DNA of 32,000 nucleotides from Erysipelotrichaceae bacterium. Its GTDB lineage: Bacteria; Bacillota_I; Bacilli_A; Erysipelotrichales; Erysipelotrichaceae. Of this stretch, positions 3,066 to 23,579 are shown piece by piece. Every line of letters starts with the position of its first letter. Position 1 is the stretch's first letter. The stretch lies in NCBI GenBank assembly GCA_030604855.1, contig JAUVVC010000001.1, positions 30,001 to 62,000 on the forward strand, read 5' to 3'. The notes below the pieces were generated by a model. It saw only the letters and a list, made by a program, of their open reading frames with translations, was not told the origin of the DNA and made no database searches. The translations under genes and the position numbers were made by a program.

Positions 3066-3100
3066 AAAACACGGAAGCTAAACAACAGCTTCCGTGTTTT
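3066..3100. terminator. Bidirectional rho-independent terminator between convergent genes
   Basis: AAAAA-CACGGAAGCT-aaacaac-AGCTTCCGTG-TTTT: a perfect 10-bp stem flanked by an A-run and a T-run. The stop of the minus-strand symporter (3078-3080) sits inside it. Confidence 0.85.
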
Positions 3101-4391
3101 GATTGTAGATCTCTTCGTTGAGATGACCAGTTTTCTTGGCCACGATGAGGGTTGCGGTTGCGGCACCGGTCACATTGGTGGCAGTACGTCCCATATCCAC
3201 TAGACTTGAGATCGGTGTCATCAAGACGATGACATCCAAAGGGAGCCCCATGCTTGCGAAAACAGCAGTTGCCGTGATGGTGGCAGTACCTGGAACGCCT
3301 ACGGTTCCAATCGAAACCAAGACGGTTGTCCCAATCAACATCGCATATTGTGCAAGTGTGAAGGGGATACCCAAGGCATTGATGGCAAAGACAGCCAACA
3401 TGGTTGGCCAGATACCAGCACATCCAGGCATGCCCATGTTTGCGCCTAAGGTTGCGACGAAGGATGCCACATCTTCATGGATACCGAGGTTTTCTTTAAG
3501 TTGACGAATAGTTACGGGAAGTGTCCCGATCGATGATTGTGAGGTGAAGGCTACGATTTGAGCGGGGAAGATGCCTTTGAAGAAACGAATTGGATTTACT
3601 TTAGCAACGAGTGCGATGAGGGTTCCATGAACCAAGAAGGTCTGAGCAATCAACATCAAATAGGCAACGAGTACAGGTAGAGTCAAGACCCAAAGATCGA
3701 CATTCGCACTGTGACGACTGGTCGCATAAGCAATTAGGGATAAAACGGCATAAGGCGTCAGTTTGATGATGGAGCGAACAATCCCAAAGAGAATTGTATT
3801 TAAAGCATCAATGCCATCTTTGAAAGTTGAGAGAGAAGGAATTCGTTCACGTAACTTAACGAAGGTGAAGCCGATCATTAATGCAAAAATCAATAGGGGA
3901 ATGATTTCTTGATTTGCTGCATGTGCGAAAATATTACGTGGGAAAAGATTAAGGATTGTTTCTAGTAATGTTGGGACCGTTGCGGTGCTGGCTTCACTGC
4001 TTTCAAGAATCGTCACACCAACGCCTAAATTGAAGAGCTTGGATACGACAACGCCTAAGATGGCAGCAACTAGCGTGTTCAAACTCAACCAGAAGATCGA
4101 ACCCAAGCCGATGGATTTCAGTTTCGCAGTACTCTCCAATTGAATGATGGAAGCGATGACACTGACGAAAATCAGAGGGACCACGATTGCGGAGATCAAG
4201 CGTGTGTAAATCTGCCCAAAGATACGAACCAAGTCCACATGCCCTTGAAAGACTAGACCGATAAGAATACCGAAAATCATTGCGATAAGTGTACGGATGC
4301 CAAAGTTGACTTTGCGTTTAGCTAAATAGAATAATAAACCAAATAAAATGAGTGTCGTGCCTAAAGCACTGATTGCGTTTATGGTGAACAT
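3078..4391 (-). CDS. Dicarboxylate/amino acid:cation symporter (DAACS) family, L-cystine carrier TcyP/YhcL-like
   Basis: 437-aa polytopic protein with the DAACS motifs AFTSQSS and VDMGRTATNV. It has GMPGCAGIWPTMLAV where glutamate carriers have NMDGTALY, which as I recall is the TcyP-type pattern. The N-terminal LFYLAKRKVNF also resembles TcyP. SD AAAGGA precedes the ATG. Confidence 0.8.
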   Translation of the reverse strand: MFTINAISALGTTLILFGLLFYLAKRKVNFGIRTLIAMIFGILIGLVFQGHVDLVRIFGQIYTRLISAIVVPLIFVSVIASIIQLESTAKLKSIGLGSIFWLSLNTLVAAILGVVVSKLFNLGVGVTILESSEASTATVPTLLETILNLFPRNIFAHAANQEIIPLLIFALMIGFTFVKLRERIPSLSTFKDGIDALNTILFGIVRSIIKLTPYAVLSLIAYATSRHSANVDLWVLTLPVLVAYLMLIAQTFLVHGTLIALVAKVNPIRFFKGIFPAQIVAFTSQSSIGTLPVTIRQLKENLGIHEDVASFVATLGANMGMPGCAGIWPTMLAVFAINALGIPFTLAQYAMLIGTTVLVSIGTVGVPGTATITATAVFASMGLPLDVIVLMTPISSLVDMGRTATNVTGAATATLIVAKKTGHLNEEIYNQNTEAVV

Positions 4392-4403: not shown

Positions 4404-4430
4404 ATAAAAAAACAGGTCGAAAACCTGTTG
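4404..4430 (-). terminator. Intrinsic terminator inside the 5' leader of the symporter gene (attenuator)
   Basis: The minus strand reads CAACAGGU-UUUCG-ACCUGUU-UUUUUAUG: a 7-bp stem followed by a U-run, ending only about 12 nt before the SD of the symporter. Confidence 0.7.
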
Positions 4431-4462
4431 AAAATGCTAAATGGTTCTCAGTTTAGCGAAAT

Positions 4463-4510
4463 TCAACATCGATTGTGACAACATACAATTCTATTTAATC
4501 GGAATGACAT
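4463..4510 (-). CDS. Candidate 15-aa leader peptide MSFRLNRIVCCHNRC (3 Cys codons)
   Basis: AGGAG (4521-4525, minus strand), a 10-nt spacer, then ATG 4510. The ORF ends at TGA 4463-4465. It lies between the promoter and the leader terminator and is embedded in mutually exclusive pairings. It is too short for the ORF track. Confidence 0.4.
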   Translation of the reverse strand: MSFRLNRIVCCHNRC

Positions 4511-4558
4511 TGTTGAATTGCTCCTAACATAGTAAACATACTAGTGAACTATGTATAG

Positions 4559-4587
4559 ATTATGCAACAATATTCGAATCCTGTCAA
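4559..4587 (-). promoter_or_regulatory. Sigma-A type promoter for the symporter leader
   Basis: The minus strand reads TTGACA (4587-4582), a 17-nt spacer, then CATAAT (4564-4559). Confidence 0.55.
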
Positions 4588-4685: not shown

Positions 4686-4700
4686 TGAATTAAATTGAAA

Positions 4701-4942
4701 CGCTTTGAAGAGAAGAGTAGTCTGTGTGGCGTTGGTAGAGAACCCTGAAGTGGTGAAAAGGGGAATCAAACACAGGTGAACATGGTCTTGGAGCGGCATA
4801 CCGAAGGGAAACCTAAGGCTATGACGGACGATTCCGTTATAAATCTAGAGTATGTCTTGTACTCGAAGAGATTCGATCAGCGATGAGCGAATGAACAAAG
4901 GTGGTATCACGGTTTGACCCTCGTCCTTGGATGGGGGTTTTT
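4701..4942 (+). promoter_or_regulatory. T-box riboswitch leader (specifier most likely AUG, Met)
   Basis: Stem I carries GAAGAGUAG (GA/S-turn), an AGAGA bulge and a GGUGAAA distal loop. An F-box CCGUUA is present. The T-box sequence AAAGGUGGUAUCACGG lies at 4897-4912. The terminator ACCCUCGUC-CUUG-GAUGGGGGU + UUUU lies at 4917-4942. Confidence 0.9.
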
Positions 4943-4965: not shown

Positions 4966-5544
4966 ATGCAGAAGAAAAATCTAGCACAGCTTATTCTAGG
5001 GGATTGGAATACGAAGACAGTGGTTGGAGTCGCGATTGGTGCAGCGTTGTTTGGGGTCTTGATGGTCTATGGTGGGGTCAAAGTCTTCACGAATACCAAT
5101 CTGACCACAGCGATGTTGATTCCGGTCATTGTTGGGGCATTGTTTGGACCCGTACCGGCCTTGGTGGCGTGTTTCTTTGGAAATGTCATCGCCGATTTGA
5201 TCGGGGGTTGGGGTTTCTGGTTTGACTGGTCGATTGGCAATGGTGTCTTGGGCTTCTTCGTTGGCTTATTGCCGTTGTATGGCGCAGACATCAATAAAGG
5301 GGTCTTTACGGTTAAGCATGCCGTCATCTTTGCCTTGGTTGCCATCTTGGGCAATGCCTTGGCTTTTGGTGTCGTGACACCTTTGTTCACACTCTTGTTC
5401 TTTGGTGGAGAATTGAACATCACTTTCCTACAGTCCTTGACCGGTGGTGCTTCCAATGTCTTGGTTCTCACCGTATTGGGCATTCCTTTGTTGTTTGCTT
5501 TGGCGAAACGCAACGCAAGTTCACAAAATTTGGTCAAAGAATAA
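4966..5544 (+). CDS. ECF transporter substrate-specific (S) component, substrate unknown
   Basis: 192-aa, roughly 6-TM hydrophobic protein directly followed by ECF A-A' and T genes. The SD AAAGGAGAAAAGGGAA precedes the ATG. Confidence 0.8.
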   Translation: MQKKNLAQLILGDWNTKTVVGVAIGAALFGVLMVYGGVKVFTNTNLTTAMLIPVIVGALFGPVPALVACFFGNVIADLIGGWGFWFDWSIGNGVLGFFVGLLPLYGADINKGVFTVKHAVIFALVAILGNALAFGVVTPLFTLLFFGGELNITFLQSLTGGASNVLVLTVLGIPLLFALAKRNASSQNLVKE

Positions 5545-5545
5545 C

Positions 5546-7237
5546 ATGCATAAAGAACCCTTGATCGTCTTCGATCATTTCAGTTTCCGCTATGCTTCAC
5601 AACAGGTGGAAACCCTTAAAAACATTCATCTCACCATTTATAAAGGTGAGAAGGTTTTAATCATCGGTCAAAGCGGCAGTGGGAAGAGTACTTTGGTGCA
5701 TTGCATCAATGGTTTGATTCCCAATTCGTTCAAGGGCGAAATACGTGGATCGTGTACCGTTGCTGGCATGGATATCAGCCATGCCAGCATCTTTTCTTTG
5801 AGTAAACAAGTGGGTACGGTGCTTCAAGACTCCGATGCCCAGTTTGTCGCCTTGTGTGTAGGAGAGGATGTGGCCTTTGCCCTTGAAAATCAAGCGATTG
5901 AAAGAAAAGAAATGATCCCCTTGGTTAAGAAAGCGACGGATAAAGTCGGGATGTCTGATTTTTTGATGCAGGTGCCCTATACGCTTTCAGGTGGCCAAAA
6001 ACAGAAAGTTTCCTTGGCCGGTGTCTTGCACGAAAATGTGAGTATCCTGCTTTTTGATGAACCCTTGGCCAGCTTAGATCCCTTTTCGGGGATGCAAGCG
6101 ATTGAACTCATCGATGCGATCCATCAAGAAGATCGCACGGTCATCATTGTCGAGCATCGTTTGGAAGATGTCATGCATCGTGAGATCGATCGTGTCATTG
6201 TCATGCATGAGGGAGAGATCGTCTATGATGGGGATTTGAATGCTTTGTTAAAAGCAAATATTCTCATTCACTATGGACTGAGGGAACCCTTGTATCTACA
6301 GGCTTTGAATTATGCAAAGATCCCTTTCAGCACCTTTGAAGATGTGACTGACATAAAAAGAATGAATTTTAGTGCAGTTCAAGGTGAATTGAAATCATTT
6401 GTGCCAAAACAGCTCCATAAGCGAATTGATCGTTCTGAAGTACTTTTAACGGTTAAAGACATCCATTTTGCTTATGATGTGAAGCCGGTTCTCAAGGACA
6501 TCCATTTCACGGTTCATCGGGGTGAGCGACTGGCCTTTGTCGGGAAGAATGGGGCAGGTAAGAGTACGATGGCCAAACTATTGTGTGCTTTCGTCCGTCC
6601 AGAAAAGGGTTCGATTGAGTTGAGTGGAACGGATATCAAAGTCTTGACCATCAAAGAAGTGGGCCAAAGAATTGGCTACGTCATGCAGAACCCGAATCAT
6701 ATGATCGTCAAACATTTGATCAAAGATGAGGTACGTTTCGCTCTGGAAAATCAAAGTCTTACCAATGAACAGATCGATGATCGTGTCGAAGATGCCCTTA
6801 AGATCTGTGGCCTGCATTCCATGCGTAATTGGCCGGTATCCGCTGTCAGTTATGGTCAGCGCAAACGTATCACGGTTGCGGCAATCCTTGCTTTAAACCC
6901 AGATATCTTGATCTTAGATGAACCCACTGCCGGTCAGGATTATGCTCATTACTCTGAAATCATGGATTTCTTGGATCAGTTGAACAATGACCATGGCATC
7001 ACCTTCATCTTCATCACTCACGACATGCATCTGGCAATTGAATATACCGATCGAGCCTTGGTGTTTGCGGATGGGGAGTTGATCGCGGATGATGAGATTC
7101 AAGCCATATTGTCGAATCCAGACATCATTGAAAAAGCCAATCTCAAGCAAACATCCTTATATTACCTCGCACAAGCCTGTGGTATAGCGGTTGAACCCTT
7201 TATCCGTTCATTCATTGAACAACGGAGTCAAGCATGA
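5546..7237 (+). CDS. ECF transporter fused ATPase (EcfA-EcfA' duplicated ABC domains)
   Basis: Two ABC cassettes: Walker A GQSGSGKST and GKNGAGKST, signatures LSGGQKQKV and VSYGQRKRI, Walker B LLFDEP and LILDEP. ATG 5546 (MHKEPLIVFDHF) is preferred over the 5444 extension, which overlaps the S gene. Confidence 0.9.
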   Translation: MHKEPLIVFDHFSFRYASQQVETLKNIHLTIYKGEKVLIIGQSGSGKSTLVHCINGLIPNSFKGEIRGSCTVAGMDISHASIFSLSKQVGTVLQDSDAQFVALCVGEDVAFALENQAIERKEMIPLVKKATDKVGMSDFLMQVPYTLSGGQKQKVSLAGVLHENVSILLFDEPLASLDPFSGMQAIELIDAIHQEDRTVIIVEHRLEDVMHREIDRVIVMHEGEIVYDGDLNALLKANILIHYGLREPLYLQALNYAKIPFSTFEDVTDIKRMNFSAVQGELKSFVPKQLHKRIDRSEVLLTVKDIHFAYDVKPVLKDIHFTVHRGERLAFVGKNGAGKSTMAKLLCAFVRPEKGSIELSGTDIKVLTIKEVGQRIGYVMQNPNHMIVKHLIKDEVRFALENQSLTNEQIDDRVEDALKICGLHSMRNWPVSAVSYGQRKRITVAAILALNPDILILDEPTAGQDYAHYSEIMDFLDQLNNDHGITFIFITHDMHLAIEYTDRALVFADGELIADDEIQAILSNPDIIEKANLKQTSLYYLAQACGIAVEPFIRSFIEQRSQA

Positions 7238-8079
7238 AGCAGTTCGTCATCAATGTCACCCCGGGTCCAACTTTTCTTCACCACTTGAGTGGCAAGACCA
7301 AGGTCATGCTTTTCGGAACGTTCATCTTTTATACCTTGATGTCCTTTGATGTGCGTTTGCTTCTACCATTGTTCATTCTGTGTTTGGTCGCACTCATCAG
7401 TTTGAAACCCAATTGGAAAGTGGTCATCGCGCTCTTCACATTCATCTTCTTCATGAATCTGATCAATCTTGTTCTTTTTTGGTTGGTGGATCCGGATGTG
7501 GGTCAGTATTACACGACGGACACACGTACCATTCTGCTAAGCTTAGGAAATTTCTTCTTGAGTCGTGAAACCTTTTGGTATCTGTTGATTCGACAACTCA
7601 AATTAATGACCAGCTTCATGGTTTCCTTGACGTTTATCTTAGCCATCACACCATCTGAATTTGCGGCAGGTTTGTATGGCCTCGGTTTACCGTATAAAGT
7701 CTGTACGGTGGTTTCTTTGGCTTTCCGTTACATTCCAGATATCGCCAATGATTATGAAAACATCAAGATATCACTTCAAGCGCGTGGTTTGGAGATGGAT
7801 AAGCGTAAACTTAATCTCTTCAAGCGTTTGAAAGACAATCTTTTCATTTTATTGCCTTTGATCATCAGTTCATTTGATCGCATCGGGAATATTGCGAATG
7901 CCTTGGATCTTAGAGCCTATGGTTTATTGAAAAAGAGAACGTATTATGCTGAACATGAACCCACCAAGGCGGATCATGTCTTTCGTTTCATCGCGATTGC
8001 GGTTTTAGTGTTCAGTTTTGCTTGGATTGGATCACGGATGATCTGGCCTCCGGTCACACAAATGTGGACCCCCTTTTAA
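7234..8079 (+). CDS. ecfT: ECF transporter transmembrane (T) component, CbiQ/EcfT family
   Basis: ATGA overlap with the ATPase stop. It is a polytopic protein with the coupling-helix region SLQARGLE and ANALDLRAY (A-R-G / A-x-x-x-R motifs). Confidence 0.85.
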   Translation: MKQFVINVTPGPTFLHHLSGKTKVMLFGTFIFYTLMSFDVRLLLPLFILCLVALISLKPNWKVVIALFTFIFFMNLINLVLFWLVDPDVGQYYTTDTRTILLSLGNFFLSRETFWYLLIRQLKLMTSFMVSLTFILAITPSEFAAGLYGLGLPYKVCTVVSLAFRYIPDIANDYENIKISLQARGLEMDKRKLNLFKRLKDNLFILLPLIISSFDRIGNIANALDLRAYGLLKKRTYYAEHEPTKADHVFRFIAIAVLVFSFAWIGSRMIWPPVTQMWTPF

Positions 8080-8087
8080 GGAGCAAT

Positions 8088-9416
8088 ATGCTAAAGCTTG
8101 ATGAACTTCTTGAATTGTTAAGCATCAAAAGTGTGTATGATGAAGCGACGGTGACTGACGTTGAACCCTATGGGAAAGGCGTTGCCCAAGCCCTCGCATT
8201 CATGCGAGAACTGGCTTTGAAAAACAAGCTTGAAGTCAAGGAATACGAGGGACACGCGATCGCAATCTGCTTGGGGGACCAAGAAGAGCGTATTGATGTG
8301 GTCTCCCATCTGGATGTCGTATCCGCGGAGGATTGGGATGAAGATCCCTTCACACCACGGATCGTCAATGGTGAGATCATCGCACGTGGAACTCAGGACA
8401 TGAAAAGTGCAGCGTATCTGACGCTCAAGGCCTTGATTGAAATCAAAAAGAAGAAGATTCCACTACAACGTCAGCTTCGTATCGTGTTGGGTACGGATGA
8501 AGAGCGCACCATGGAAGACATGGTTCATTATGTCAAACAAGCTGGTCAACCGAAGTTTGCCTTTACCCCAGACGGGGCTTTCCCTCTTTCAATTGGAGAG
8601 AAAGGGGCACTCATGTGGCACATCAAAACTCAGATTGAAAGCCCGGTTCTTGAAATGAGGGGCGGAACACAATGCAATGTGATCGCACCCCATTGCACCT
8701 TCACTTTACCGCATGCCTTCAAAGGTTTGATTCACCAAACAACGGAAGCTCTTGACTTTGAAGTGAAGTGCGAAGAAGACCAGGAGCTTCTCCATTATAC
8801 CTTCACAGGCATTGCAGGTCATGCCTCACGTCCAGAAAGTGGACACAATGCGATTGTGGATGCCCTTCAAGTCTTAGCGCTCTGTTTCCCTAAAACAGCC
8901 TTTAAGAAGCTTTATGAGACCTTCGAAAGTCCTTATGCGAGAGGGACAACACTTGCTTATAATATTGAACCGATGGGACCTTTGACGCTCAATCTGGGTA
9001 TCTGTTCACTCCGAAATGGAGTTTTTGAGGCGGACGTGGATTGTCGCTACCCGTATGGGGTCACATCGGATGTTTTGACACAACACTTGACACAAGCATT
9101 ACCGGGTTTTGAGGTCAGCTTACCCTACGATGCCATTCCCATCTTGAATGACATCCAATCACCCTTTATTCAAACTTGTTTGAAGCATTATCGCGCAAAC
9201 TTCATTGATGATCGAGAACCCTTCATATCCGGAGGTGTGACGTATGCCAAGATCATTCAGCCTTGCATCGCCTTTGGACCGCTCTTACCGGGTCGGATCA
9301 GCTTGGCCCATCAGAAGAACGAATCGATTGCCATTGAAGATCTTGAACTTTTGTATCCCTTTTATCGGGATATCCTAATAAAACTTGCCAATTGTGAGGA
9401 GAACCAACATGCCTAA
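8088..9416 (+). CDS. M20 family metallo-hydrolase, PepV/Sapep-like dipeptidase
   Basis: ATG 8088 follows AAGGAG. The motifs SHLDVV, ARGTQDMKSA and LGTDEE match the metal-ligand and catalytic blocks of M20A dipeptidases. Confidence 0.8.
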   Translation: MLKLDELLELLSIKSVYDEATVTDVEPYGKGVAQALAFMRELALKNKLEVKEYEGHAIAICLGDQEERIDVVSHLDVVSAEDWDEDPFTPRIVNGEIIARGTQDMKSAAYLTLKALIEIKKKKIPLQRQLRIVLGTDEERTMEDMVHYVKQAGQPKFAFTPDGAFPLSIGEKGALMWHIKTQIESPVLEMRGGTQCNVIAPHCTFTLPHAFKGLIHQTTEALDFEVKCEEDQELLHYTFTGIAGHASRPESGHNAIVDALQVLALCFPKTAFKKLYETFESPYARGTTLAYNIEPMGPLTLNLGICSLRNGVFEADVDCRYPYGVTSDVLTQHLTQALPGFEVSLPYDAIPILNDIQSPFIQTCLKHYRANFIDDREPFISGGVTYAKIIQPCIAFGPLLPGRISLAHQKNESIAIEDLELLYPFYRDILIKLANCEENQHA

Positions 9417-10248
9417 AACCATCGTTTTTCAATCGGATTTCACCTACAAAGAAGGAGCTGTGGCAGCTATGTATGGGGTGGTCAAACAAGTCGATCCCAA
9501 CTTGGAGATCATCGATCTGACCCATGAGATTCCCAAGTTCGATATTTGGTCTGCTTCATTCAGACTGCACCAGGTTGTGCCTTTCTGGCCCAAAGGAACG
9601 GTCTTTGTCAGTGTCGTCGACCCAGGCGTGGGGACTTTCCGCAAAGCCTGTGTCGCAAAAACCAAGAGTGGTCAATGGGTTGTAACACCTGATAATAAGA
9701 CCTTGACGCATATTGCCAAATTCATTGGACTTGAAGAAGTTCGTGAGATTCCAGCCCATCTTCGTTTCGCATCGCCGTATAAGACGGCCGTCTTTCATGG
9801 TCGTGATGTCTTTGGTTATGTCGGTGCACTGCTTGCGAGTGGTCAAAAGAAGTTCGAAGAAATCGGTGAAGTTTACACGGATTATCAAACTTATGACTTG
9901 GAAGAACCACGAATTGAAGGGGATAAGCTTGTTGGCATCGTAGAGATCTTGGACCCTAATTTTGGAAATGCCTGGACCAATATTCCCATCACCTGGGCGA
10001 AGCAAGTTGGGATTGAGTTCAATGATCTGGTAGAAATCGATATCTATGAGAAAGAACGTTTAGCTTTACAGTTAATCGTCCCTTATAAAGCAACATTTGG
10101 GGGTGTGCATGTGAATGAAGCGGTGATGTATGCGAATGAATTGGAGTGTTTGGCACTTGCCATCAATCAGAATTCATTCATCAACACCTATCACATCCAT
10201 CAAGGTCCAGACTGGTGCATCTGCATCAAGAAGGCAAGTTATGTCTAA
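9409..10248 (+). CDS. S-adenosyl-L-methionine hydroxide adenosyltransferase (DUF62, fluorinase/chlorinase superfamily), paralog 1
   Basis: ATG 9409 follows GAGGAG and overlaps the M20 gene by 8 nt. The protein has FQSDFTYKEGAVAAM, VSVVDPGVGTFR and FHGRD, so the Asp71/Arg78/His130 triad is present. Confidence 0.85.
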   Translation: MPKTIVFQSDFTYKEGAVAAMYGVVKQVDPNLEIIDLTHEIPKFDIWSASFRLHQVVPFWPKGTVFVSVVDPGVGTFRKACVAKTKSGQWVVTPDNKTLTHIAKFIGLEEVREIPAHLRFASPYKTAVFHGRDVFGYVGALLASGQKKFEEIGEVYTDYQTYDLEEPRIEGDKLVGIVEILDPNFGNAWTNIPITWAKQVGIEFNDLVEIDIYEKERLALQLIVPYKATFGGVHVNEAVMYANELECLALAINQNSFINTYHIHQGPDWCICIKKASYV

Positions 10249-11086
10249 GATCTTAGTCCTGCAATCAGACTTTGGAATCGTGGATGGGGCTGTGAGTGCG
10301 ATGATTGGGGTTGCCTTAAGTGTCGATGATTCCTTGAAGATTTTTGACTTGAGTCACTCGATTTCACCTTTCAATATTCATGAAGCATCCTATCGTTTAC
10401 TCCAATCCTTGCAATACTGGCCAGAAGGTTCGGTGTTTGTGAGTGTCGTAGACCCAGGGGTAGGATCGAAACGCAATTCAGTTGTGGTTCGTACACGTGA
10501 GAATCATATTGTAGTGACCCCAAACAATGGGACACTCTCGCATTTGAAGAAGTTTATCGGTATTGAAGAAGTCTTTGAAGTGGATGTGGCGAAACATCGT
10601 CGCAAAGGTGCCAGCAATCAATCGTATACCTTTGATGGTCGTGATTTATATGCCTATATCGGTGCACGTTTGGCTTGTGGGCAACTATCCTTAAATGACG
10701 TAGGACCAAAACTGAGTGAAGATCAAATCATATCCTTTGAACTTCCCGAATCGCTTGTCGAAAATGATTCTGTCAAAGGAAGTGTGGAGATTTATGATGA
10801 GCGTTTCGGTAGTTTATGGACGAGCATCTTGGTAGAGGATTTCAATCAATTAGACCCAAAGTATGGTGATCGTTTCAAAGTCGAAATCAAACATGAAGGC
10901 ATCTCATACCTTGATGAGTCTGTTCTATATGGCCGTGCTTTCAATGATGTGCATGTGCATGATTTGATTCTCTATGTGAATTCATTGAATCGCGTTGCTT
11001 TGGCCTTGAATCAAGATTCTTTGGTCAAGAAGTATGGAATTGGTTTAGGACTGGATTGGACCATAAGCATCACACCCATTCGTTAA
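10241..11086 (+). CDS. SAM hydroxide adenosyltransferase family (DUF62), paralog 2 with altered triad
   Basis: ATG 10241 overlaps the stop of paralog 1 (ATGTCTAA). The protein has LQSDFGIVDGAVSAM and VSVVDPGVGSKR, but FDGRD replaces FHGRD, so the triad His is Asp132. Confidence 0.8.
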   Translation: MSKILVLQSDFGIVDGAVSAMIGVALSVDDSLKIFDLSHSISPFNIHEASYRLLQSLQYWPEGSVFVSVVDPGVGSKRNSVVVRTRENHIVVTPNNGTLSHLKKFIGIEEVFEVDVAKHRRKGASNQSYTFDGRDLYAYIGARLACGQLSLNDVGPKLSEDQIISFELPESLVENDSVKGSVEIYDERFGSLWTSILVEDFNQLDPKYGDRFKVEIKHEGISYLDESVLYGRAFNDVHVHDLILYVNSLNRVALALNQDSLVKKYGIGLGLDWTISITPIR

Positions 11087-19157: not shown

Positions 19158-22100
19158 TCAAAGATTTAGTAAAGCGTTTAATAGAATCTCGCTTAAGTCC
19201 CTTAATACTTCTAATTCATTTTTAGAGTAGATATGTTTGTCTCGAACAGAGTCAAAACCTATAAATCCGTAACACGCATTGTTGAACATCATTGGCAAGG
19301 TAAGCAGACTTCTTACTTCTTGAGGTTCGAGGATTAATCTCACTGCTGACTCTGGGTCAAGAAGTTCCACATCAGGGATAAAGATTGTCTCTCCAACAAT
19401 GTGGGCATTTGCCCAATCAATAATGTTGCCTAATGGTATCTTTTGAAGTGCCTCGATTTGAGGTGTTATACCTGGTGAACACCATTCGTACGTATTTGAG
19501 CAGGTGGATTCTGTCCAGTCATATTTAAAAATGTATACTCTATCAGCCTTTACAACCGTTCCAATTAACTTAAGTGATTTGCTTATCAACTTTTGATAGT
19601 CAGATTTGTCTGATCTAATGAACTCGGATGCGATTTTTAATAGTATTTTATCTATCGTTTGATCATATATTCCTTGATCAACTATAGTTGCATCAATATA
19701 GTTAAGAGGGAACTTAGAACTTAGTTCCGAAACATGTTTGAAGTATTTTTGATCTTCTTCGAAAAAGTGATGTTTTAAGATATCAAATTCAAGAACAGAT
19801 AAGAATTCTAATACAGTAATGTTATTTGATTTATACTGATCATAATAATCGTAGATCGTTCTTACTAACTTCTTATGAATAGAATGGTGTTCTTTATAGT
19901 TGATATACTTAGTTGCTTCAAGTATCTCCACTTCGTCAGTGAAGTGTCTTCCGATTTTTATCAAAAGGTTATCTAGATGATAAGTAAGTTCAATTGAATC
20001 TATAGTTCGACCTTCAAGCAATTTTCTCAAGTCATATAGTTGTGCGATGAGTTCTTGGTGTTGATGATCGATGATTCTGTTGCCAGAATTCCATTCCACT
20101 TTCCAATAATTTTTCAATTCCTTATTCTCAAATATATGTTTACTCACTGGTAGGAAATTAATATCTTTCGCTGCATGATAATAAAGTTTAAAGTCTATTA
20201 GCCTTAATGGCTTCGAAAACAGATATCCTTGTATACTATCAGGTCTTAATTCGCTTAAGATTTTGAATTGATTTAATGTTTCAACACCTTCAATCGTAAC
20301 TTCTAGATTTAAACCGTGGAGAATAGAAATAATTGCTTCAACAATTTTCAGCGACTTCTGATCACTTTCAATTGAGCTTATTAAAGAACGATCGATCTTA
20401 ACAATGTCAAGAGGGAGCATTCTAAGATAAGCAAATGAAGAATATCCAGTTCCAAAGTCATCAAGTGCTAGACTTAATCCAAGCTCTCTTAAGCGATTGA
20501 ATACTTTAATCACCTCTATACTATCCTGTACTAAACTAGACTCTGTTACTTCTAGTTTTAGCCGCTTAGGATTGATTCCGCTTCTATTGAGTTCATATTT
20601 CAGGCAATTATATAGTTCGTCTTTTCGATCAGATATTGCTATGAATGAAAGATTTATACTTATAGACAAGAGTCCAAACTTTGATTCATCCCAACTTGCC
20701 AATTTTGAACACGTCTCGTGTATGACCCAGTCTGTAATGGGTATAATCAACTTTGTCTTTTCTGCTATTGGGATGAACTCAATCGGAGAAATAACTCCCA
20801 ATTTGGGGTGATTCCATCGTAACAACGCTTCAGCTTGATCAACCATCCCTGACTGAACATTGAAAATTGGTTGGTAATATAGCTCCAATTCTTGCTTATC
20901 AAGTGAGTTTCGTAAGTCTTTCTCAAGGAGTAATTCTCGTTCAATTTTAGATGCTAAAATGGAAGTGTATTGAACATATGTATTTTTTTGTTGTTTAGCT
21001 ACTCCTAAAGCCAATTTAGCATTTCGCAAAAGATCTTTATCATAAAGCGATTTATCTATGATTTCATATCCCATACTGGCATATAAGATTTGTATTCTCT
21101 CATTTATCAATATTTGTGTAGATATTGCTCTCCTTAACAAATCCATATATTCTACGACTTCAGTTTTAGTGTGTTTATTCAGTATAACTACAAATTCATC
21201 GCCTGCATAATAAAAAATAAAGCCATTTTGATCCGTCACTTCTTTTATTCTTTGTGCTACTTGTGCAAGGATAACATCTGCTGAATAGTAGCCAATTTCA
21301 TTGCTCAACTTTCCGAAATCATCTAGATCTATGTAGATAACAGTAAATTTGTTTAAAAGCTCAGTATTTGAGATTATGCTTTCTTCAAATAAGCGTAATG
21401 CTGTTTTGTTTTTAAGCCCAGTAACTGAATCATGCAAATATAGATACTCAATTCTTTCTTTATTCATTTTTTGATCATTAATGTTCTGAATTTGAATGAT
21501 AACAGACTGTTCATTTTCAAACTCTATTGAGCTTGCTGATATGGATGCCCAATATTTTTCATGTTTGGTGTTATAAAGCTCAAGCTCGAAATTATATAGT
21601 AGTCCATTTTTTCTAATTTCACCTATTAGATAATCTGCTTGTTCTGAGTTAACTAAATAATCATCAACATTTATTTTAATGAGGTCTCTTTTTGATAACT
21701 CGAAGTCATGAATTGCGCGAGCATTTGCATATTTGACCACCTTTTCTTTACTGCTCAAAATTAAGATAGGATAGGGTGTATTATCGAGCATTCTCCTATA
21801 TTCGGAATTTTTAGATGCTTCCTCAATGATTTTACGAGTAGTAATATCGTAATGGCTTCCAGCCATTTTTAATGGTTTCCCGTAAACGTCATACTCGATT
21901 ATTTTCCCGCGATCTAGAACCCAAACCCATTTTCCACTTTTATGTCGCATACGAGCTTCAGACTCGTAAATGTCCCTTTGGTTACGAAAATAGAGATCAA
22001 GATTCATTTCAGATTTTTTAAAATCCTCACTGTGAACTAGATTTTTCCATGTCTCAATTGTGGTAGGTTGCAACTCATCTAGTTTATACCCAACAATTCC

Positions 22101-22223
22101 AGCCCATCTTTCATCGAATTTGGTCTCACCTGTAAGTACATTCCATTCCCAATTTCCGACAGTAATGCTTTCGTTAGCTGTATCGAAGTAGTAGATATCA
22201 GTGTTTAAGTACTCGTTTTTCAT
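19158..22223 (-). CDS. Multidomain c-di-GMP protein: PAS-PAS-GGDEF(degenerate AGDEF)-EAL-hemerythrin-GAF
   Basis: Approximate domain spans are PAS aa 20-130 and 140-250, GGDEF 258-420, EAL 440-680, hemerythrin 705-835 and GAF 855-1021. The GGDEF A-site is YYAGDEF. The EAL domain has YQPI, EALLRW, LEVTES, DDFGTGYSS, KIDRS, EGVET and QGYLFSKP. The hemerythrin has IDHQH, HFTDE, HHSIH and HHFFEED. Confidence 0.9.
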   Translation of the reverse strand: MKNEYLNTDIYYFDTANESITVGNWEWNVLTGETKFDERWAGIVGYKLDELQPTTIETWKNLVHSEDFKKSEMNLDLYFRNQRDIYESEARMRHKSGKWVWVLDRGKIIEYDVYGKPLKMAGSHYDITTRKIIEEASKNSEYRRMLDNTPYPILILSSKEKVVKYANARAIHDFELSKRDLIKINVDDYLVNSEQADYLIGEIRKNGLLYNFELELYNTKHEKYWASISASSIEFENEQSVIIQIQNINDQKMNKERIEYLYLHDSVTGLKNKTALRLFEESIISNTELLNKFTVIYIDLDDFGKLSNEIGYYSADVILAQVAQRIKEVTDQNGFIFYYAGDEFVVILNKHTKTEVVEYMDLLRRAISTQILINERIQILYASMGYEIIDKSLYDKDLLRNAKLALGVAKQQKNTYVQYTSILASKIERELLLEKDLRNSLDKQELELYYQPIFNVQSGMVDQAEALLRWNHPKLGVISPIEFIPIAEKTKLIIPITDWVIHETCSKLASWDESKFGLLSISINLSFIAISDRKDELYNCLKYELNRSGINPKRLKLEVTESSLVQDSIEVIKVFNRLRELGLSLALDDFGTGYSSFAYLRMLPLDIVKIDRSLISSIESDQKSLKIVEAIISILHGLNLEVTIEGVETLNQFKILSELRPDSIQGYLFSKPLRLIDFKLYYHAAKDINFLPVSKHIFENKELKNYWKVEWNSGNRIIDHQHQELIAQLYDLRKLLEGRTIDSIELTYHLDNLLIKIGRHFTDEVEILEATKYINYKEHHSIHKKLVRTIYDYYDQYKSNNITVLEFLSVLEFDILKHHFFEEDQKYFKHVSELSSKFPLNYIDATIVDQGIYDQTIDKILLKIASEFIRSDKSDYQKLISKSLKLIGTVVKADRVYIFKYDWTESTCSNTYEWCSPGITPQIEALQKIPLGNIIDWANAHIVGETIFIPDVELLDPESAVRLILEPQEVRSLLTLPMMFNNACYGFIGFDSVRDKHIYSKNELEVLRDLSEILLNALLNL

Positions 22224-22270: not shown

Positions 22271-22360
22271 TAAAAAACACCTACTTGGGAACTGGCTGCC
22301 ATTTTAAAGGCCCTATAGTTTTGCGTCCAATGCTTTCGCACTGTTTGCCTTTTTCTTCAA
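22271..22360 (-). promoter_or_regulatory. c-di-GMP-I (GEMM-I) riboswitch candidate in the 5' leader of the GGDEF-EAL gene
   Basis: The minus-strand RNA reads GAAGAAAAAGGCAAACAGUGCGAAAGCAUUGGACGCAAAACUAUAGGGCCUUUAAAAUGGCAGCCAGUUCCCAAGUAGGUGUUUUUU. GGCAAAC, a 6-bp hairpin capped by GAAA, GGACGCAAA and AUGGCAGCCAGUU parallel the conserved blocks of Vc2 (GGCAAACCAUUCGAAAGAGUGGGACGCAAAGCC...) as I recall them. Confidence 0.75.
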
Positions 22361-22799: not shown

Positions 22800-23579
22800 A
22801 TGGAAACTAAATTCAAAAAACTCATTCGTTTCAATCTTATCATGGGCTTCTTTCATTTGATTCAAGGCATCGCCATGTTGTTCTTGGCAACTTCTGTCAT
22901 CCAGAAAATCGGTGAATTCCAACCCAGCATCGTTCAGTTCTATCAGACCTTCAATCCAATGACACGATCACTTGAAGTCACTTCGAAAGTCTTGTTCGAT
23001 TTACCATTCGGTATCTTGGTCGCATCTTTTCTCTTGATCTCAGCGATTGCACATGGCTTGATCGTTCTAAACAAAGACCGTTATATTGCGGATCTGAAAA
23101 TCGGTCTCAATCGCTTCCGTTGGTTCGAATACGCTTTGAGCTCATCGATCATGATCGTCTTGATCGCAACCTTGTTTGGCATCTATGACATCGCAAGTTT
23201 AGCTTTGATCTTCATCGTCAATGCATCCATGAATCTATTTGGTTTGGATATGGAAGAATTGAATGCAGGCTTCACCAAAGGCAAAGTCAACTGGGGGCCC
23301 TTCATCTGGGGTTCATTGGCGGGCATCGCACCTTGGATCGCCATCTTCTTGTACATGACCGGAACCGGTAATTACGATCAAGTGCCTTGGTTCGTATGGG
23401 CAATCGTAGGTACATATTTTGTCGCCTTCAACACCTTCCCAATAAACATGATCGCTCAATACTTGAAATTGGGTAAGTGGAAAGATTACCTCTATGGTGA
23501 GCGTTTCTACATCATCCTCAGCTTGGCAGCGAAGTCCATCCTGGCTTGGCTTGTCCTCTTTGGTGCCATGCAACCTTAA
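22800..23579 (+). CDS. Heliorhodopsin
   Basis: 259-aa, 7-TM protein. NRFRWFEYALSSSIMIVLIA, VNASMNLFG and GERFYIILSLAAKSILAW closely parallel heliorhodopsin 48C12 (IFRWVEYSLSSSVMIVLIA, VNASMILFG, GERAYIVLSLVAKSALAW). Lys245, Glu110, His19 and His85 are all present. SD AAAGGGA lies 7 nt before the ATG. Confidence 0.9.
   Translation: METKFKKLIRFNLIMGFFHLIQGIAMLFLATSVIQKIGEFQPSIVQFYQTFNPMTRSLEVTSKVLFDLPFGILVASFLLISAIAHGLIVLNKDRYIADLKIGLNRFRWFEYALSSSIMIVLIATLFGIYDIASLALIFIVNASMNLFGLDMEELNAGFTKGKVNWGPFIWGSLAGIAPWIAIFLYMTGTGNYDQVPWFVWAIVGTYFVAFNTFPINMIAQYLKLGKWKDYLYGERFYIILSLAAKSILAWLVLFGAMQP

Follow-up and report, generated by a model that had tools for sequence, protein, structure and literature searches.

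The window analysed here is a 32,000-nucleotide stretch of the genome of an Erysipelotrichaceae bacterium (contig JAUVVC010000001.1, positions 30,001 to 62,000), and the element in question is the 5′ leader of a gene for a TcyP-like, cystine-type symporter. This leader is best explained, with moderate confidence, as a ribosome-mediated transcription attenuator that is keyed to cysteine and controls the transporter gene. It carries a Shine-Dalgarno-led open reading frame (ORF) with tandem Cys codons, followed by an intrinsic terminator; the Cys codons are kept while the rest of the peptide changes, and such ORFs recur upstream of orthologous transporters. The reading of the element as a Cys-keyed leader peptide is well supported by this comparison of genome sequences. 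In addition, a conserved palindrome where transcription is predicted to begin points to a further layer of control at the promoter.

All features of the leader lie on the minus strand of the window and are collected in Table 1. An initial annotation of the stretch had described a TTGACA-17-CATAAT promoter, a 15-codon ORF with Cys at codons 10, 11 and 15 preceded by AGGAG plus 10 nucleotides (nt), and an intrinsic terminator between this ORF and the transporter. All three were recovered at the same places, the terminator with an 8-bp stem and a U-run. Across the relatives described below, the −35 box is kept as TTGACA (TTGACT in locus L004) and the −10 box is variable, and AGGAG and ATG are present in all of them with a spacing of 6–10 nt. 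Two terminator-like sites were observed in the 900 nt scanned, against 0.4 expected, and the terminator is present in all close relatives and in L004. Since the upstream neighbour is divergent, this terminator does not belong to an upstream gene, and since it lies inside the 5′ leader, it is taken as an attenuator. The whole leader folds only modestly better than shuffled sequences (z = −2.1).

Table 1. Coordinates of the transporter gene and of the leader features within the window.
Feature	Position	Strand	Description
TcyP-like SDF/DAACS symporter gene	3078–4391	−	437 aa; PF00375, 342 bits; ATG at 4391
Sigma-70-type promoter	4559–4587	−	TTGACA (4587–4582), 17 nt, CATAAT (4564–4559); 11/12 consensus matches in promoter scan
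26-nt palindrome	4528–4553	−	CATAGTTCAC..GTTTACTATG; at the predicted transcription start, 5′ of the leader Shine-Dalgarno
Leader Shine-Dalgarno	4521–4525	−	AGGAG, 10 nt 5′ of ATG 4510
seg1	4511–4519	−	AAUUCAACA, between Shine-Dalgarno and AUG; 9 bp possible with seg2
Leader ORF	4463–4510	−	15 codons + UGA, MSFRLNRIVCCHNRC; Cys at codons 10, 11 and 15
Tandem Cys codons 10–11	4478–4483	−	UGU UGU; proposed sensor
seg2	4460–4468	−	UGUUGAAUU; Cys15 + stop codon + 3 nt
Segment X	4443–4450	−	UGAGAACC; complementary to segment Z
Hairpin P	4437–4451	−	CUGAG-AACCA-UUUAG; 5′ strand overlaps segment X
seg3	4426–4432	−	UUCAACA; shares first 4 nt of terminator 5′ arm; 7 bp with seg2
Segment Z	4418–4425	−	GGUUUUCG; upper 5′ arm + loop of terminator; partner of X
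Intrinsic terminator	4404–4429	−	AACAGGUU-UUC-GACCUGUU + U-run; 8-bp stem 4429–4411, U7 to 4406

Related loci were collected through homology of the transporter protein alone, so their upstream regions constitute an unbiased sample. The closest genomes are uncultured Erysipelotrichaceae metagenome-assembled genomes, e.g., UBA8511 and UBA4808, and scans of metagenome and genome collections added few in-clade sequences. The close clade comprises the window and loci L001–L003, L011–L014, L022 and L026, with 91–96% transporter identity. Its leader ORFs occur in five sequences (MSFRLNRIVCCHNRC, MLLNVNRIMCCHNRC, MRIRVLRMVCCHNRC, MLLRVNNVVCCHSRC and MLLRVNYRVCCHSRC), always 15 codons long and Shine-Dalgarno-led. 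They begin with MSFRLNRIV-, MLLRVNNVV-, MLLNVNRIM-, MRIRVLRMV- or MLLRVNYRV-, and all continue with CCH(N/S)RC and the stop codon. Codons 2–9 are free to vary and CC is constant; despite this variation, neither frame loss nor stop codons were found. At 72% identity and with the same synteny, L004 and L005 retain the promoter, the 5′ palindrome, AGGAG and the terminator. Their leader ORF encodes an unrelated 18-codon peptide, MHSTQFYLTNTENCCLSK, and CC is the sole peptide feature in common. The CC block lies 27–33 nt 5′ of segment X, or CUGA(G/A)AACCA, in the window clade and in L004; the ORF start is shifted by 4 codons in L004 relative to the window clade, with the CC-to-X distance held.

Conservation of the mini-ORF in relatives had been named in the initial annotation as a check, and besides being kept in the close clade, Cys-run ORFs were found in further lineages. 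In the Erysipelothrix HDW6B/anatis/aquatica group (51%), the ORFs MEILCCCTFSNYNGNTKV, MGIQCCCTFSNDNGNTKV and MGIQCCCTFSNDNWNTKV follow the pattern M(E/G)I(L/Q)CCCTFSN.. up to the stop, and the terminator abuts the transporter Shine-Dalgarno. Erysipelothrix larvae (52%) has the ORF MRMLDCICYEKGRINQLFLSCRCCG (MRMLDCICY...SCRCCG, then stop), followed by a terminator. These Erysipelothrix ORFs are unannotated (L029 1160–1370, E. larvae CP013213; L033–L038 1049–1200), and the strings UCGAUGUUG and AACCAUUUA are common to the E. larvae and window leaders. Cultured Erysipelothrix species with Cys-rich leader ORFs are usable experimental models. In Sedimentibacter and allied genomes (52–53%), the ORFs end in ...(I/M)CCCCR or ...ICCCCRYN. 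Their Cys codons vary synonymously (UGU UGU UGU UGC vs. UGU UGC UGU UGC) and their indels, of 1–2 codons, are in frame, which is the signature of a translated frame. No obvious terminator was seen in these leaders (L016, L017, L018, L024 and L025), where the Cys tract UGUUGUUGUUG pairs with a CACAACAACA box located 4–10 nt 5′ of the transporter Shine-Dalgarno.

The frequency of such ORFs by chance was determined on dinucleotide shuffles of 200-nt upstream regions, counting Shine-Dalgarno-led ORFs of 8–40 codons that carry two or more Cys codons in tandem. They arose in 0.4% of shuffles for the upstream region in the window and in 0.03–0.9% across the loci, and 7 of the 513 mini-ORFs of the window have tandem Cys. 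The appearance of Cys-run ORFs in four to five independent lineages of about a dozen sampled is far beyond chance. A 7-bp Watson–Crick match to the terminator flank was obtained in about 5% of shuffles, and pairings alone are weaker evidence.

The initial annotation had also arranged the leader into four segments with mutually exclusive pairings of the trp type; this scheme was borne out only in part and is not supported in the form given. The sequences and positions of seg1, seg2 and seg3 were exact and the 9-bp and 7-bp pairings can form, but seg2:seg3 is weak and lost in L004, and readthrough on a Cys stall was not reproduced. Conservation was followed in seven distinct leader sequences, including that of L004. 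Since seg2:seg3 is invariant within the close clade, it is uninformative there, and no covariation was detected for it across the seven leaders. Compensatory changes had been named as a check in the initial annotation, and seg1:seg2 has one (A-U to C-G): its outer pair is C-G in three sequences, A-U in two and G-U in one. There are also two A-to-G wobble changes in this helix, and in L013 it is weakened. Only the terminator (96% of cells paired), hairpin P (97%, with one pair varying G-C/G-U/A-U) and X:Z (98%) are kept in both the window clade and L004. X:Z consists of 8 Watson–Crick pairs in L004, via two one-sided wobble-to-Watson–Crick changes, and its shuffle p is about 0.016 there and about 0.24 in the window alone (G-U allowed).

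In the window clade and in L004 alike, X starts exactly 15 nt past the first base of the leader stop codon. The block CUGA(G/A)AACC (window 4451–4443; L004 2079–2087) is found 14–15 nt past this base (4465; L004 2065), a location that would be just past the leading edge of a terminating ribosome, though ORF lengths and spacers differ. Between the two lineages, CUGA(G/A)AACCA and AACAGGUUUUC are the most conserved non-coding blocks. Other pairings were rejected. Helix A:C (GAUGUUGAAUUUC with GAA..AUUUAGCAUU) appears in minimum free energy (MFE) folds and in the RNAalifold consensus, and was discarded as functional after uncompensated changes were seen to weaken it in L001 and L011 and to break it in L004. 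The hairpin GCUAAA:UUUAGC is not kept in L004 and its inner pair is gone in the L001 group. The leader stop region is also complementary to the flank of the transporter ribosome-binding site (GAAUUUC:GAAAUUU, window 4464–4458 with 4399–4393; UCAAAAUAA:UUAUUUUGA, L004 2059–2067 with 2114–2122). These pairings were picked out by eye and, considered as a possible translational layer, were not maintained in L001 and L011.

Folding of the window leader gave −10.3 kcal/mol for seg2:seg3 plus the GCUAAA:UUUAGC hairpin, against −11.1 to −11.7 kcal/mol for this hairpin plus the terminator, so the two states are about isoenergetic. With a ribosome stalled at Cys and the 3′ arm of the terminator yet to be made, the RNA on the 3′ side of the ribosome has seg2:seg3 stacked on GCUAAA:UUUAGC as its MFE structure (−12.4 kcal/mol). 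The UGUU of seg2 and the UGUU of the terminator 3′ arm are rivals for the same four bases, and a hybrid fold with 4 bp of seg2:seg3 and a 7-bp terminator was the most stable (−14.9). X:Z has −7.0 kcal/mol with a barrier to the terminator of about 11 kcal/mol, and in co-transcriptional prefixes the terminator arm is paired predominantly through X:Z. Both seg2:seg3 and the more widely conserved X:Z are candidate antiterminators. Since seg3 and Z are contiguous (4432–4426 and 4425–4418), they form one 3′ strand at 4432–4418 on which both helices could act jointly, locking the whole 5′ arm as a pseudoknot.

According to the attenuation model, transcription would start just past CATAAT, at about 4552, and the 15-codon leader ORF would be translated by a ribosome whose passage over the tandem Cys codons is set by charged tRNA-Cys. 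Its progress would decide which RNA between ORF and terminator is free as RNA polymerase makes 4429–4406; seg2 is exposed 3′ of a ribosome stalled at Cys10/11 and is hidden by a ribosome on the stop codon. With ample Cys-tRNA, the default fold with the terminator would form and transcription would end before the transporter. With scarce Cys-tRNA, the ribosome would wait at Cys10/11, an alternative fold would sequester the 5′ arm of the terminator and the transporter would be transcribed. We infer stalling as the sensed event, and this direction, with cysteine shortage turning the gene on, is the better-supported guess by analogy with importer biology and the mycobacterial precedent discussed below.

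Several results weigh against this model. A leader ORF is absent in the orthologues with about 61% identity (L006, L007 and L009), as well as in L015 (Erysipelothrix), L028 (Lachnospiraceae) and L030 (an unassigned metagenome contig), so the element is dispensable and patchy. The substrate of the transporter is putative, being assigned through its family and annotation transfer alone. With regard to the RNA, 5 of the 7 pairs of seg2:seg3 are broken in L004, and the helix covers only AACA of the terminator arm, with an escape barrier of about 3.9 kcal/mol. For the 3′ domain, RNAalifold gave nothing but the terminator and a non-covarying upstream helix, with an unfavourable covariation term. The proposal that a stall at Cys10–11 leads to antitermination did not hold in the folding calculations: with the ribosome at Cys10/11, masked partition functions for four close variants kept P(terminator) at 0.65–1.0, and the polarity was not reproduced. 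Equilibrium ribosome-mask scans gave no consistent switch, and the co-transcriptional model gave the inverse polarity in the window clade and in L004. Finally, for some Bacillota at least, transcription and translation are assumed to be weakly coupled, and an RNA polymerase pause would therefore be required.

The last of these folding results leads to the alternative that best survives, although it is held to be rather unlikely: the ORF and the terminator are the same, X:Z is the real antiterminator, and the transporter is on when tRNA-Cys is well charged. Here, a ribosome on the stop codon would mask the next 10–12 nt (B/seg2 in the window, UCACAAA in L004) and dissolve the hairpin that holds X, so that X:Z forms and the terminator cannot nucleate; with the ribosome held at the Cys codons, or with none, the hairpin would stay intact and the terminator would form. 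The system would then work by substrate induction, as might suit anaerobes that ferment amino acids and catabolise cysteine, to name one example. The full form of the idea, a tRNA-charging substrate-induction switch of anaerobic Bacillota in which charged tRNA-Cys induces a cystine-type importer through X:Z freed by the stop-codon ribosome, is a shade less likely again.

The inverse direction draws on X:Z, hairpin P and the terminator being the only helices common to both lineages, on the fully Watson–Crick X:Z of L004, on its higher barrier compared with seg2:seg3 and on the stop-to-X spacing that is held despite different ORFs and spacers. In the co-transcriptional model, RNA past the stop that is free (ribosome at CC or absent) gives the terminator, and RNA masked by a stop-codon ribosome gives X:Z, with the flip point at stop +9/+10 nt in the window clade and in L004. 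Since the flip region is what a terminating ribosome covers, the models give the inverse of trp logic. Equilibrium folding of L004 likewise puts P(terminator) at 0.8–0.9 when the ribosome is on the Cys codons and at 0.2 when it is on the stop codon. However, the co-transcriptional model is home-made, barrier-limited, threshold-sensitive and blind to pseudoknots, and was used as a flag only; nested-only nearest-neighbour modelling of AU-rich RNA shares this fragility. X:Z is at chance level in the window alone, a ribosome on the stop codon is short-lived and hence a fragile signal, and tRNA charging saturates at low amino-acid levels, which makes it a poor sensor of excess.

The inverse direction is also physiologically odd for a cystine importer, as known Cys systems switch on under shortage. 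CymR and T-box systems are on under Cys shortage. The same applies to the system of the mycobacterial Cys small ORFs (sORFs) (bioRxiv 10.1101/834739). In addition, modelling of the E. larvae leader yields the classical polarity. Its equilibrium P(terminator) is ≤0.2 with the ribosome at codons 2–17, including Cys6 and Cys8, and about 0.9 with the ribosome from codon 18 to the stop, so in the calculations it behaves as a clean classical trp-type switch. The predicted antiterminator pairs the 3′ end of the ORF, UGUCGAUGU, with the terminator flank ACAUUGACA, in the same layout as seg2:seg3. Since a common polarity is to be expected of orthologues preceded by analogous Cys ORFs, at least one of the model sets is wrong, and given this conflict between E. 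larvae and the window and L004, folding was treated as unable to call the direction.

It was also considered that the leader might be a ligand- or protein-binding attenuator, in which CUGARAACCA, GGUUUUC and the terminator core act and the mini-ORF is incidental. The conservation of CUGA(G/A)AACCA and AACAGGUUUUC as the best-kept non-coding blocks fits this idea, as does the lack of a convincing Cys-stall switch in ribosome-masked folds. Nevertheless, it is improbable: the conserved core is tiny and lacks a multi-helix aptamer supported by covariation, and neither the recurrent Shine-Dalgarno-led Cys-run ORFs in unrelated leaders nor the synonymous Cys changes and in-frame indels are explained. 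The initial annotation had given a match to a known riboswitch class as a refuter, and no Rfam match was found on the minus strand; the leaders of the window and of 13 related loci matched no family, whether the threshold was the gathering score or a permissive one. The T-box (RF00230) had no minus-strand match even at E ≤ 10, and the sulfur riboswitches of Rfam 15 (S-box/SAM-I, SAM-II and others) gave nothing at gathering score. A SAM-II match of 12 bits (E = 9.6) on the opposite strand is noise. So is a 14.7-bit match to SQ1002 across the leader, since it was not reproduced and SQ1002 is a small RNA adjoining feoA2 in C. difficile. Matches to mir-90, mir-1829 and mir-32 merely reflect the hairpin potential of seg1:seg2 and seg2:seg3.

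A similarly low probability is given to promoter-only control, with a repressor on ATAGT-N14-ACTAT and a terminator hairpin and mini-ORF that have no regulatory role. This palindrome core (window 4552–4529) is exact in 16 of the 16 related loci with this promoter type and uniquely placed, and no second copy of ATAGT-N14-ACTAT was found in the window. It is also present in the orthologues (about 61%) that have no leader ORF or terminator, e.g., L006 2959–2982 and L009 325–348, where the inner part co-varies with the symmetry kept, as in ATAGTTCTCAgatgTGAGAACTAT; the outer stem is invariant in seven sequences. The palindrome is either a candidate operator for a repressor or a 5′-terminal stem-loop, as judged from its sequence. 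However, a strong terminator between a promoter and its sole gene would be costly if unregulated, yet it has been kept down to 72% protein identity; promoter control alone also leaves the recurrent Cys-run ORFs without an explanation, and both controls can coexist. Since the palindrome is conserved even where the ORF and the terminator are missing, the attenuator seems to have been added to an older promoter-level control. Separately, motifs such as ATAGGAAAAG and GTAGGAATAT occur upstream of distant orthologues in L016 (about 2310–2345), L024 (about 1275–1305) and L028 (about 1140–1170) and may resemble the Bacillus CymR box.

That the mini-ORF product is a functional Cys-rich micro-peptide, for example metal- or redox-active, co-expressed with the transporter, is very improbable. 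In favour of this reading, the C-terminal CCH(N/S)RC looks like a metal-binding motif and does not vary within the close clade. CC aside, however, L004, Erysipelothrix and Sedimentibacter have unrelated peptides, the invariant 3′ portion of the ORF doubles as RNA pairing with the leader, and the terminator stands between the ORF and the transporter gene.

The transporter downstream of the leader had been called TcyP-like in the initial annotation; it matches PF00375, and the TcyP name comes by annotation transfer only. It is far under the NCBIfam cut-offs for GltP, DctA and SstT, and UniRef names its 52% homologue in E. larvae "L-cystine uptake protein TcyP". In the homologue cluster P0014 (939 member sequences; L031 1–2556), the start of the transporter overlaps the end of a PF01053 gene, which encodes a pyridoxal phosphate (PLP) enzyme of Cys/Met metabolism and shares an operon with the transporter in L031. 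In the homologues L006–L009, an AhpC/TSA-redoxin gene comes after the transporter. These PLP-enzyme and thiol-peroxidase-type neighbours support a putative sulfur/thiol role of the transporter family.

On the plus strand, 110 nt away from the attenuator, there is a full-length T-box leader (4696–4931; 90.2 bits against the Rfam cut-off of 93, E = 3e-20), whose specifier aligns as AUG (Met). The operon behind it (4966–11086, plus strand) encodes an ECF S-component, fused ECF ATPases, an ECF T-component, an M20 peptidase and two paralogues of S-adenosylmethionine (SAM) hydroxide adenosyltransferase (PF01887), and it may serve uptake or salvage of SAM or a Met-containing compound on methionine starvation. 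Since this operon with its Met-specifier T-box is divergent, the leader stands back-to-back with a putative methionine-starvation operon, a sulfur-related setting that speaks for the attenuation model, and the divergent synteny of the T-box operon and the transporter is maintained in L001–L005. Elsewhere in the window, a c-di-GMP-I riboswitch (22284–22359, minus strand, 64.5 bits) lies directly 5′ of ORF 19158–22223 on the same strand, which encodes a 1021-aa PAS-PAS-GGDEF-EAL-hemerythrin-GAF protein; judged from its domains, a c-di-GMP turnover enzyme appears to be controlled by a c-di-GMP riboswitch. A heliorhodopsin gene (PF18761, 302 bits) is found at 22800–23579 on the plus strand of this apparently uncultured Erysipelotrichaceae genome.

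T-boxes, riboswitches and repressors such as CymR are the mechanisms usually credited with amino-acid control in Bacillota. If the attenuation model is true, a ribosome-based cysteine sensor would be added for this phylum (Erysipelotrichaceae, Erysipelothrix and Sedimentibacter-like genomes), and Cys-keyed attenuation would reach further than Actinobacteria and the cysS motif predicted for Rhodobacterales. A DAACS subfamily that lacks annotation and occurs mostly in uncultured organisms would also receive a functional label, sulfur amino-acid uptake, and a compact system, in terminator and non-terminator versions, would be at hand for the study of attenuation where coupling is presumably poor. 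The initial annotation had called Cys-keyed leader-peptide attenuation unusual in Bacillota, and the literature agrees: no Cys leader ORF was found there for this phylum, nor for a transporter.

The closest architectural type is that of trpL, hisL and pheL, with which the window leader has in common a short Shine-Dalgarno-led ORF with tandem cognate codons near its stop, a terminator just before the gene and several predicted, mutually exclusive pairings between the two. In contrast to these, the system is keyed to Cys, serves a transporter rather than a biosynthetic operon and is found in Bacillota (Erysipelotrichaceae). Its antiterminator of the 2:3 type is weak, with a 4-nt overlap, and the switch was not reproduced in silico, while the best-kept competitor of the terminator has a 1:3 topology, in which X pairs with Y or Z. 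With the Cys T-box and CymR systems of Bacillota, it would have the same input, be it tRNA-Cys charging or the pool of cysteine, and the same type of target (tcyP and cys genes), but sensing would be by the ribosome instead of by tRNA–RNA contact or a protein, and no T-box was found on the minus strand.

Among Firmicutes and their relatives, leader peptides are represented by the His leader of Bacillus hisS/hisZ (PMC2965389) and by uORFC-13-1, a Phe-codon upstream ORF (uORF) of Acholeplasma aroF (PMC8632094). They are likewise amino-acid-codon leader peptides with terminators amid lineages dominated by T-boxes and riboswitches, but for a different amino acid and different genes. For cysteine, Brewer et al. 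(2021, PMC8632094) predicted a tandem-Cys uORF with an intrinsic terminator, uORFC-8-2, in front of the cysS gene of Rhodobacterales. Compared by its description there, it resembles the window leader in its two tandem Cys codons (positions 14–15), its stems and its terminal intrinsic terminator, and it is read as Cys-tRNA-sensing ribosome-mediated attenuation, also as a prediction only (PMC8632094). It belongs, however, to Alphaproteobacteria and a cysteinyl-tRNA synthetase gene, with no detectable sequence relation to the window leader. With gene and phylum differing, the window leader is not a uORFC-8-2 member, and the architecture would be analogous only.

In Actinobacteria, candidate Cys leader peptides without terminators were reported (PMC1262725), and in mycobacteria, leaderless polycysteine sORFs acting on translation were validated (Ms5788A; bioRxiv 10.1101/834739), their authors noting in 2020 that uORF-mediated attenuation for cysteine was previously undescribed (bioRxiv 10.1101/834739). 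A Cys-codon run near the end of a short upstream ORF as a sensor of cysteine supply would be common to these and to the window leader. Furthermore, the mycobacterial Cys tract pairs with a downstream ACA-rich box, an arrangement similar to that in the Sedimentibacter-type leaders L016, L017, L024 and L025. The mycobacterial ORFs, however, are leaderless and sequester the Shine-Dalgarno, thereby acting on translation, and have no terminator, whereas the window ORF is Shine-Dalgarno-led and has CC instead of a long run, with a canonical intrinsic terminator behind it. By these features, the window leader does not qualify as a polycysteine translational attenuator of the mycobacterial kind. Cys-keyed attenuation is already known as a kind, and it is the lineage and the target gene of the window leader that extend its range.

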